64,000 bases of DNA, taken from contig CM000154.2 of NCBI GenBank assembly GCA_000004695.1, forward strand, positions 3,712,001-3,776,000. The letters run 5' to 3'. The position numbers and the translations under genes are program-made. This DNA is from Dictyostelium discoideum. Taxonomy: Eukaryota. Below, in pieces: positions 57,697 through 60,385 of this stretch (positions are counted from its first letter, which is position 1; each line of letters begins with the position of its first letter). The notes under the pieces were generated by a model. It was not told the origin of the DNA and made no database searches. It worked only from the letters and a program-made list of their open reading frames with translations.

Positions 57697-58580
57697 ATGA
57701 AAATTTTAATATTATCATTTTTCTTAATTTTAGGAATAAATTTAGTATTTTGTCAAAGTTCTATTTCTTTAAGTGCCACTATTTATGATCAAAGGTAAAT
57801 TTAATTTTTTTTTTTTTTTTTTTTTTTTATAAAACATTTAATTATTCTTTTTAAAAGTTTTTAATTTTAATTAATTTTATTTTATTTTACTAATATATTT
57901 TGAAAGTCCTGCACGTAATCGTATGTAATTTTTTTATTAGTTTTTTTATAAAACTTTTTTTTAAAAAACATATTTATTTTTAAAATTAAATAATAATAAT
58001 AATAAAAATAATAATAAAATTAATAATATTTAAAATTTTAATAATAATAGCTGATTTCGAAATACCAAATGCTCCAAATGCTGTAGTTAAGAATATGGTT
58101 CTAAGTACTTTAGGTGCTGATAAAACTCCAACCTATTGTTGTGGTGATAATGGTGTTTATTATAATGGTCAATTTGATATTCATAGCCAATCCACATTTG
58201 ATTCCTGGTTCCATGAAATTGAAGGTATCAGTTATGCCGTTCCATACGAATTAGTTTTAATTGAATCGAAAGACGAACCAGGAATTTATGTATATACCTC
58301 TAGTTCTTTCTTCCCAATTGGTAATTAATTTAATTTATATTTTAAAATTTTTTTATTTAAATAATATTTTTTATTATTATTATTATTAATATTATTATTT
58401 TCCATATAATCCATAGATGGTAAAGGTTTTGATAATAAAACATTATACCCAGATGAAATCACCTATAATGGTCACAACTACCATTTTTGTATGAAAATTC
58501 ATAGTAGTTTTACCTATCATGGTGGTGAATATGTATGTATTTATATTTTTTAAAACCTTTTATTTTATTTTACTAAAAAC

Positions 58581-58615
<35 letters not shown>

Positions 58616-59078
58616 TATTTATAATAGTTCACATTCGCTGGTGATGATGATGTATGGTATGAATTTAAAAATATATTGTTATTGTATAATTTGTAAAAAA
58701 AAAAAAAAAACAAAATTTTAATTATTTATCAAATAAAAATAAGGGTATACTTTGATAATAACCTTTTAATAGATTTAGGTGGTTTACATACAAGTGCATC
58801 TGAAACAGTTTACTTAGATAACCTAGGTCTCACTATTGGACAATCATTCCCATTTGATTTCTTTTACTGGTAATTTATTTAATATTGATATTAATTTTTT
58901 AAAAAATATAATCCAATTAATACTTATTAATCTATAAAAATTATACCAATAATTAAAAAATTATAACAATTTAAACTAAAGTGAAAGACATACATATGAA
59001 TCTAATTTAAATATTATTACAAACTTGAATTTAACATGTATTGAATATGACGCATGTGGAGTTTGTCTTGGTAAATAT

Positions 59079-59118
<40 letters not shown>

Positions 59119-60385
59119 TTACAATTAAATTAAATTAAGGTAAAAATGATACGTGTTGCTTTGTAAATAAATGTGAAACCATTAATAGATGTTTAGAAGC
59201 TGACTGTAATGAAGGAACCAATTTCCAATGTGATTACCATATAAAGAATTGTAGTGATGGTGATATTTGTGAGTATTTTTTTTATTTTTATAACAAAAAA
59301 TTCTTTTTCTAACCTTAAAATTTCCCACATAAAACAGGTTCAACTGATGGTTGTGATATTGGTTTTGGATGTGTAAGTTGATTTTAATTTTTCTTTATTA
59401 TAAACAAAAAAGATTAAATTTTTTTTTTTTTTTTTTTTTTTTTTCTTCTTCTCTTTCTCTCCTCTAAAGATTAATTTACCTATAAACTGTGATGATGGAA
59501 ATTATTGTACTAAAGATTATTGTGATCCAACATATGGGTTTGTATTTAATATTATTATATTCATTTATTAATTTAAACACAATTCAATATTTATTAGCTC
59601 TCTCCCCTTTTTTTTTTTTTTTTAAAAAAAAATAGATGTTTACATATCGAAACTGCAAATTGCACTGAATGTTTAGAAACAGGTTGTGTAAGTTTAATTA
59701 TATTTTTAAATAACATTTTGGTTTATAAAATATTTATTAATTAAACTATCATAATTTTCTATAGATAACTGTTCTCCCATGTTTCCCAGTAACATGTGAC
59801 AGTTTAAATAGTAGCCACGTAAGTATTAATTTAATTTATTTTAGTTTTAAAAACCATTTTTTATAGTTATAATAAAATAATATTAACTAAATAATTATAT
59901 TGATTTTTAAATAGTGTGTTGCTAGTGCTATGAATTGCTCAGATAACGATCCATGTACATCAACAGAATGCGTTAATGGAGAATGTACATATGAGTGGAT
60001 TTGTGGATCAGAAGATTCATCATCTGGTGTTGTAGATTCATCATCTGGTGTTGTAGATTCATCATCTGATGTTATTGATTCTTCAGATATTATTATTGAT
60101 TCTTCATCCGATATCCCAATACCAACACTATCACCTTCCCCTCAACCATCACGTTTCCCAACTGATACACCAACTAATACACCAATGCCACCAACCCGTC
60201 CTCCAACTCCAACTGAAGATCCAAAGATCTATGAAGATCCAGAAGATTTAGATAAAGATTGTTTACATTGTAAAGATTTAGGTTGCATACTAACTGGTAA
60301 AAGTTGTGGTTACTTAAAAAATGAAAAATACGAAAAATCAAATTGTAAAGAGAATTGTTGTTCACATACTCCAACTTGTTTTTAA
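57697..60385 (+). CDS. secreted PA14-domain protein with C-terminal Cys-rich modules (prespore-cell-inducing factor / psi family-like), 13 exons including a 14-nt micro-exon, about 516 aa
   Basis: Exons 57697..57794, 57907..57920, 58051..58320, 58407..58522, 58628..58656, 58744..58869, 58982..59070, 59140..59268, 59338..59372, 59470..59537, 59636..59687, 59765..59818, 59915..60385. All introns are GT-AG (GTAAAT, GTATGT, GTAATT, GTATGA, GTGAGT, GTAAGT, GTTTGT) and phases are consistent. Splicing yields the signal peptide [21 protein letters not shown] and ...[23 protein letters not shown]. The PA14 core is [25 protein letters not shown]. The tail is Cys-rich and P/T/S-rich. Confidence 0.7.
57907..57920 (+). 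CDS. 14-nt micro-exon (TCCTGCACGTAATC) of the PA14/psi-family gene
   Basis: Without it, exon 1 (phase 2) joined to 58051 gives an in-frame TGA. With it (acceptor AAAG, donor GTATGT) the frame is restored and encodes SPARNP. Confidence 0.6.

Follow-up and report, generated by a model that had tools for sequence, protein, structure and literature searches.

The psiC locus and its exon structure

We analysed a window of 64,000 nucleotides (nt) from Dictyostelium discoideum and focused on the gene psiC, which occupies positions 57697-60385 on the plus strand and is divided into 13 exons and 12 introns. The DNA of this locus is extremely AT-rich, with blocks of approximately 30-40% guanine plus cytosine (GC) alternating with blocks of 5-15% GC. 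The exon chain was assembled by hand from the ATG at 57697 and then checked by an exhaustive depth-first search of GT..AG combinations, allowing introns of 40-800 nt. Exactly one chain reproduces the PsiC protein. The spliced coding sequence (CDS) is open over 1551 nt (516 codons plus stop), and the predicted product matches Protein psiC of D. discoideum AX4 with 100% identity over its full 516 amino acids (aa) (P0001; XP_001134513.1, EAS66830.1, UniProt Q1ZXC5, UniRef100_Q1ZXC5). The gene identifier of psiC is DDB_G0290245 (PMC12821622 supplements). The exon coordinates of the original prediction, which had been made from the DNA letters alone, reproduce the annotated PsiC exactly.

The gene and its 13-exon structure are already in public annotation (dictyBase, UniProt, RefSeq). 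An older automated model of 560 aa (P0121) also contained the 14-nt exon 2; it departs from the present annotation at intron 9 and the 3′ end. A literature search on psiC, its gene identifier, and intron-rich or micro-exon genes of Dictyostelium retrieved no description of the psiC exon structure. All 12 introns are of the GT..AG type, measure 69-130 nt and have 5-20% GC, and the exons have 19-50% GC. Donors are of the GTAAGT/GTATGT type and acceptors end in TAG, AAG, or CAG, with a preference for A/T-TAG across the subfamily to which psiC belongs. No non-coding RNA was predicted within psiC, introns included, by either Rfam (E up to 0.1) or ARAGORN. The features are listed below; in residue motifs, here and throughout, a slash marks the intron position.

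57697-57794, plus strand: exon 1, 98 nt; start codon, signal-peptide-like N-terminus, ...SATIYDQ and the AG of a Ser codon; ends in phase 2
57795-57906, plus strand: intron 1, 112 nt, 6% GC, GTAAAT..AAAG
57907-57920, plus strand: exon 2 (micro-exon), 14 nt, TCCTGCACGTAATC, 50% GC, encodes (S)PARN(P)
57921-58050, plus strand: intron 2, 130 nt, 5% GC, phase 1 in RN/P
58051-58320, plus strand: exon 3, 270 nt; N-terminal portion of the PA14/fibro-slime region
58417-58532, plus strand: exon 4, 116 nt; DGKGFDNK...HGGEY
58628-58656, plus strand: exon 5, 29 nt; second small exon, FTFAGDDDV(W)
58744-58869, plus strand: exon 6, 126 nt; closes the PA14/Fibro_Slime domain (..FDFFY C)
58982-59070, plus strand: exon 7, 89 nt; Cys-rich region, phase pair 2-1
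59140-59268, plus strand: exon 8, 129 nt; Cys-rich region, phase pair 1-1
59338-59372, plus strand: exon 9, 35 nt; Cys-rich region, phase pair 1-0
59470-59537, plus strand: exon 10, 68 nt; Cys-rich region, phase pair 0-2
59636-59687, plus strand: exon 11, 52 nt; Cys-rich region, phase pair 2-0
59765-59818, plus strand: exon 12, 54 nt; Cys-rich region, phase pair 0-0
59915-60385, plus strand: exon 13, 471 nt; last CTDC-like unit, Ser-rich repeat, Pro/Thr-rich linker, Cys-rich tail CLHCKDLGC...CCSHTPTCF, stop

The domain content of the product bears out its assignment to the PA14/psi family. Three models scored above their cut-offs: Pfam PA14 (PF07691) at aa 140-245 (45.7 bits, cut-off 24), TIGR02148 Fibro_Slime at aa 147-235 (124.2 bits, cut-off 45), and, C-terminal of PA14, Dicty_CTDC (PF00526) at aa 308-328 (29.7 bits, cut-off 27). 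A pattern search revealed additional CTDC-like units of four Cys residues. The overall architecture is a signal-peptide-like hydrophobic N-terminus, the PA14/fibro-slime region, Dicty_CTDC repeats, a Ser/Thr/Pro-rich linker, and a Cys-rich tail. Judging by its visible hydrophobicity, the N-terminus looks like a signal peptide, and PsiC has been grouped with signal-peptide proteins in a developmental proteome (PMC12821622). Within exon 13, positions 60013-60085 form a 21-nt tandem repeat (3.5 copies, 92% matches) that encodes (DSSSGVV)n. The Ser-rich and Pro/Thr-rich stretch varies in length and sequence among the homologues P0002, P0003, P0004, and P0005, suggesting a fast-evolving linker.

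The 14-nt micro-exon

The micro-exon stands out in composition, as its 50% GC lies between introns of 5-6% GC. Its splice sites are canonical (AG upstream, GTATGT downstream), and both are conserved in L001, the psiC locus of D. firmibasis, and in L010, from a second D. discoideum-like genome. The orthologous micro-exons, TCCTGCTCGTAATC in L010 and TCCTGCACGAAATC in L001, each carry one synonymous third-position change relative to AX4, and the introns that flank them are full of insertions and deletions between the three genomes. Each of the first 12 exons, exon 1 included, has the same length in L001, L010, and AX4. At the DNA level, the conservation of the micro-exon is independent of annotation models.

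The original prediction had proposed that this exon reconstitutes a conserved IYDQSPxRNPDFE segment, and it does: inclusion restores S-PARN-P, which corresponds to the family motif SPARNP. Approximately 50 of the 120 homologues listed fit a loose regular expression for this motif, and in the Polysphondylium violaceum homologue P0011 the segment TPSRNPDFE is encoded uninterrupted in one exon. The further claim that the 14-nt exon is required to avoid an in-frame stop holds with one qualification. When exon 1 is joined straight to exon 3, the product reads IYDQS and then stops, and retention of intron 1 also leads to a stop. However, when all joins were enumerated, we found 12 stop-free single-intron GT..AG joins between exon 1 and exon 3, every one of which deletes conserved residues.

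Between exons 1 and 3 lie 256 nt, and this interval contains only two stop-free in-frame AG..GT candidates, one of 14 nt (SPARNP) and one of 8 nt (SPAP). The latter would use an in-frame donor, GTAATC, with its GT at 57915-57916, and was rejected: it yields IYDQSPAPDFE with loss of the conserved Arg-Asn, and D. firmibasis lacks the GT (CGA for CGT), which makes the 8-nt version unlikely as the conserved form. This donor may be used for minor alternative splicing in AX4. Meanwhile, none of 20000 shuffles of the interval (0/20000) produced an AG-N14-GT candidate encoding [ST]P.[RK][ND]P. From this pattern of conservation we consider the micro-exon to be real with high confidence.

Each short AT-rich intron of psiC would be recognised on its own, that is, by intron definition. 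The small size of the introns and their contrast in composition with the exons suggest such individual recognition, under which an exon of 14 nt would be no obstacle.

The two introns that delimit the micro-exon differ in their distribution. Intron 2 (phase 1, RN/P) occurs at the identical position in the D. purpureum genes P0005, P0006, and P0008. Intron 1 is confined to the D. discoideum/D. firmibasis clade, being absent from these three genes and from P. violaceum P0011; the D. firmibasis gene P0010 has an intron 1 nt away from the position of psiC intron 1. Since intron 2 is shared with D. purpureum and intron 1 is not, intron 1 is likely the younger of the two, and its arrival would have made the micro-exon. 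We propose that intron 1 was acquired 14 nt upstream of the older intron 2, after the split from D. purpureum and before that between D. discoideum and D. firmibasis. Independently, the D. purpureum genes P0005 and P0006 have an exon of 18 nt on the other side of the old intron 2. The intron that precedes exon 4 (phase 1, PI/DG) is also present in P0006 and P0008, and psiK has an intron 3 nt (one codon) away. The counterpart of exon 5 in P0005 and P0006 is an exon of 21 nt whose borders are shifted by 3 and 5 nt.

Intron number across the psi family

The original prediction called 12 introns exceptional for Dictyostelium. This is correct relative to the D. discoideum genome, with its mean of 1.9 introns per spliced gene (the D. 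purpureum value is 1.51; PMC3188802), but not relative to the secreted psiC-like subfamily, for which 12 is typical. We rebuilt exact exon chains for annotated psi proteins on their own genomic DNA, which gave the following intron counts.

P0005, D. purpureum, secreted: 12 introns
P0006, D. purpureum, secreted: 13 introns
P0008, D. purpureum, secreted: 8 introns
P0015 (partial), D. purpureum, secreted: at least 9 introns; exons of 8 nt and 15 nt
P0010, D. firmibasis, secreted: 20 introns
psiK (P0086), membrane: 4 introns
P0017, D. purpureum, membrane: 3 introns
P0020, D. firmibasis, membrane: 3 introns
P0011, P. violaceum, secreted: 1 intron; nearly the whole CDS in one exon

The intron number of psiC, at 7.7 per kilobase (kb) of CDS, is three to four times that of the membrane-type genes compared when counted per gene. 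In group-4 Dictyostelium, genes of the secreted psiC-like subfamily carry 8-20 introns each, or approximately 8 per kb of CDS, with exons down to 8 nt, so that a high intron number is a property of this whole subfamily. Instead of a transmembrane segment, the intron-rich psi genes all have the C-terminal tail CLxCxDLxC...CCxxTPTC. The inferred introns have a mean GC content of approximately 10-14%, and none of them can be read through in frame, because of either a frame break or stops.

Some members are more finely divided than psiC itself. The D. purpureum protein P0015 can be reproduced only with an exon of 8 nt (L009, 624-631) and one of 15 nt (412-426), between introns of approximately 60-70 nt; if confirmed by RNA, the former would be a very short constitutive coding exon. 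P0010 of D. firmibasis (L005, 1501-5550), the closest paralogue outside the psiC clade, has its 2.4-kb CDS divided into 21 exons, including exons of 18, 20, and 22 nt, and no D. discoideum AX4 counterpart of it was found among the 120 best matches. For P0012 of D. cf. discoideum (L008, 1501-5732), no exact GT..AG chain was found. Its 831-aa annotation fuses a psi-type gene to a BPL_LplA_LipB neighbour and misses part of PA14; it is probably a mis-predicted model and was excluded from the intron map.

Intron positions and their turnover

A neighbour-joining (NJ) tree built on 227 conserved columns placed D. purpureum P0005 in the psiC clade with 100% bootstrap support, followed by P0006 (91%) and then P0008/P0012 (76%). 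Intron positions were mapped for nine genes over the conserved N-terminal block of 256 codons. psiC and P0005, with 12 introns each, have a single exact position in common, and psiC has two in common with P0006 and four with P0008. Altogether, 38 distinct positions fall within the 256 aligned codons. Many of these lie 1-5 nt apart at a few sites (HFCMKI, EYF/TFAG, DDDVW/V, FFYC/ERH, and DACGVC), a clustering which suggests that introns were repeatedly inserted at, or slid around, favoured sites. In the sequences as they now stand, simply shifting GT/AG does not convert one near-coincident position into another.

An all-against-all blastn comparison of 91 introns returned only low-complexity poly-T and ATT matches of at most 54 bits, with shuffled controls at 38-48 bits. 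The comparison thus gave no sign of a common introner-like or transposon-derived source, as no similarity between introns extended beyond low complexity. On the alignments, the most economical reading would be repeated and largely lineage-specific intron gain accompanied by some loss. We further consider it somewhat better than an even chance that the secreted psiC-like subfamily is a hot spot of spliceosomal intron turnover, with a vertebrate-like intron density, in an otherwise intron-poor genome. This turnover is not described in the genome-wide study of intron gain and loss in Dictyostelium, which under strict criteria reported 40 putative gains in D. discoideum and 58 in D. purpureum (Ma et al. 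2015, PMC4683709), and psiC is absent from the supplementary lists of that study.

Alternative origins of the intron-rich structure

Exons 7-12 had been predicted to encode one short Cys-rich module each and to end in phase 0 or 1, in a pattern permitting exon shuffling. The end phases are 1, 1, 0, 2, 0, and 0, exon 10 being the one in phase 2. Only exons 8 (1-1) and 12 (0-0) are symmetric; the other four of the six fail the symmetric-phase test, and the insertion, removal, or duplication of any of these four would shift the reading frame. The correspondence between modules and exons is also loose. The number of whole Cys codons in exons 7-12 is 3, 7, 2, 3, 4, and 2, respectively. Introns 8, 9, and 10 interrupt the CTDC units at aa 285-308 and 309-333, and exon 13 contains all of the unit at aa 368-390. 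It is nonetheless true that exon 10, with its 68 nt, holds the single CTDC match detected by Pfam, and that introns 9, 10, and 11 lie near the last Cys of successive units, as might be expected if one-module exons had been shuffled or duplicated to assemble the Cys-rich half, leaving the introns as relics of module borders. The comparison of intron positions with other psi genes, which had been put forward as a check, went against this idea. Introns 8-12, in the CTDC-repeat part, are restricted to the D. discoideum/D. firmibasis clade, except that one also occurs in D. purpureum P0008. In P0005, the orthologue from D. purpureum, none of introns 8-12 is present and the stretch between aa 283 and 364 is uninterrupted; the Cys-rich region of P. 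violaceum P0011 contains no introns at all. From these comparisons, introns 8-12 are best read as later insertions and not as module boundaries. An origin of the intron richness by exon shuffling is not supported, and we regard it as very improbable.

Two other explanations concern all of the introns. The many introns and tiny exons could be annotation artefacts, or the locus a decaying pseudogene. The psiC model has indeed been revised since P0121, and P0012 is a visibly fused mis-prediction. Against this stand the unique exact GT..AG chain obtained for each annotated protein, spliced products that are collinear and ungapped over the junctions relative to the almost intronless homologue, introns that are without exception AT-rich and frame-breaking, the constancy of the first 12 exon lengths in three genomes, and the detection of the PsiC protein. 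We give this explanation almost no credence. A stronger alternative is that the ancestor of the secreted psi genes was already very intron-rich and that the discordance between genes arose mainly by differential loss, with some sliding. Intron loss is several-fold commoner than gain in both D. discoideum and D. purpureum (441 and 202 losses versus the 40 and 58 gains; PMC4683709). Loss has also occurred within the subfamily, since P0005 has lost four psiC positions that the more distant P0008 retains, and positions 1-5 nt apart in different genes are compatible with sliding. However, 38 positions in 256 codons would need an ancestral intron approximately every 20 nt, the membrane-type psi genes of three species have only 3-4 introns, and the failure of simple GT/AG shifts to interconvert neighbouring positions speaks against sliding. 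Differential loss as the main process thus appears unlikely, albeit less so than shuffling or artefact.

Several points weigh against our own interpretation, in which lineage-specific gain predominates and the micro-exon is real. With nine genes and an NJ tree, gain is not fully separable from loss. Losses outnumber gains genome-wide in Dictyostelium, with cDNA-mediated loss being dominant (PMC4683709), and P. violaceum P0011 keeps only its 5′-most intron, a pattern classically left by reverse-transcriptase-mediated loss. The use of the micro-exon in the mRNA is deduced from conservation and annotation, and the annotations of D. firmibasis and of newer Dictyostelium genomes were built with the D. 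discoideum proteome, such that their models are not independent (PMC11193728). The mass-spectrometry support for PsiC is at the protein level, without junction-spanning peptides, and the function of the protein is extrapolated from paralogues only. Collectively, we assign a probability of roughly 85% to the account as a whole, namely that the gene is psiC, that its micro-exon is real, and that its introns reflect subfamily-wide, lineage-specific gain with some loss and not exon shuffling.

Expression and inferred role of PsiC

psiC is not a pseudogene. By mass spectrometry, the PsiC protein was seen solely at the final developmental stage, in fruiting bodies, where it clusters with PsiA in a late proteome cluster rich in signal-peptide proteins (PMC12821622). 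The gene is also present on an expression array, with lower expression in lrrB- cells (PMC2906285). These mass-spectrometry and microarray detections exclude an unexpressed pseudogene. A 15-residue peptide spanning a micro-exon junction does not appear in the supplements of the proteome study (PMC12821622).

The PA14/fibro-slime region is a carbohydrate-binding fold in other proteins. A sequence search of solved structures with PsiC gave no match at E up to 1. PsiA and DicA1/PsiF, paralogues that act as extracellular signals, have a PA14 plus CTDC design like that of PsiC (PMC3325183, PMC4931340). By analogy with them, PsiC is most likely an extracellular matrix or spore-associated glycan-binding protein, or a signal.

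Neighbouring sequence

Upstream of psiC, an open reading frame (ORF) of 122 aa at 56525-56893 on the minus strand is an actin fragment, and an actin-like fragment is found at the equivalent upstream place in D. firmibasis L001 and in L010. Rfam matches to mir-3533 and mir-1 fall at 56444-56740, in or beside this fragment; they score far below the gathering thresholds and probably represent chance or coding-sequence resemblance. Downstream, a 332-aa ORF at 60467-61465 on the minus strand lies tail-to-tail with psiC, approximately 80 nt past its stop, and its equivalents in L001 and L010 carry an APH (PF01636) phosphotransferase domain. The matching actin-fragment and APH-gene neighbours in L001 and L010 indicate that local gene order is conserved, and they support the identification of the locus. 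Further upstream, at 51766-53595 on the plus strand, an intronless ORF of 609 aa, rich in Asn, Lys, and Ile and with a Cys/His motif (CPICNNEMNNDPYGHLFFNC), looks like part of a retroelement ORF.

Significance and comparison with known systems

Well-documented recent intron gains are scarce, and the mechanism of gain is debated. The 13-exon model of psiC was already public; what our analysis adds is comparative support for the micro-exon, together with the removal of the exon-shuffling reading. The noteworthy and possibly undescribed part is the intron proliferation and turnover across the subfamily. If this turnover is true, the psi subfamily offers dozens of intron positions that disagree between genes, intron pairs separated by only 8-29 nt, and, as a control, a relative with almost no introns. 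It would then be a compact system in which to ask where new introns land, whether introns slide, and how the spliceosome handles exons of 8-14 nt.

Like the micro-exons of other eukaryotes, that of psiC is a coding exon of well under 30 nt that is required for the frame and encodes conserved residues. It differs from those in that it appears to be constitutive, with no regulated inclusion indicated, and in that, within a genome poor in introns, it is flanked by two short ones, its origin being explained by two insertions of introns 14 nt apart. The introns of the psi subfamily resemble the gains reported by Ma et al. 2015 (PMC4683709), which are lineage-specific and nearly all without an identifiable source. 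The scale is different, since that study counted tens of gains genome-wide and the psi subfamily alone presents dozens of discordant positions.

At the protein level, PsiA (PSI-1, the prespore-cell-inducing factor) and DicA1/PsiF of D. discoideum belong to the same family as PsiC. PsiC, by contrast, falls in a shorter, secreted subfamily with the C-terminal Cys-rich tail, and a signalling role can be suggested for it only by analogy. The membrane-type relatives (psiK and P0016-P0019) have a transmembrane segment and an NPLY tail where PsiC has its Cys tail. Outside the eukaryotes, the PA14/fibro-slime core of PsiC is shared with bacterial fibro-slime proteins (TIGR02148) and with myxobacterial PA14 proteins such as TraA. 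Among the matches listed (P0029-P0120), dozens of bacterial proteins named as "fibro-slime domain-containing", some of them from Polyangia metagenome bins, match this core over approximately 40% of PsiC with E values of 1e-35 to 1e-57. Unlike psiC, the bacterial fibro-slime proteins are intronless and have neither the Dicty_CTDC repeats nor the C-terminal tail.

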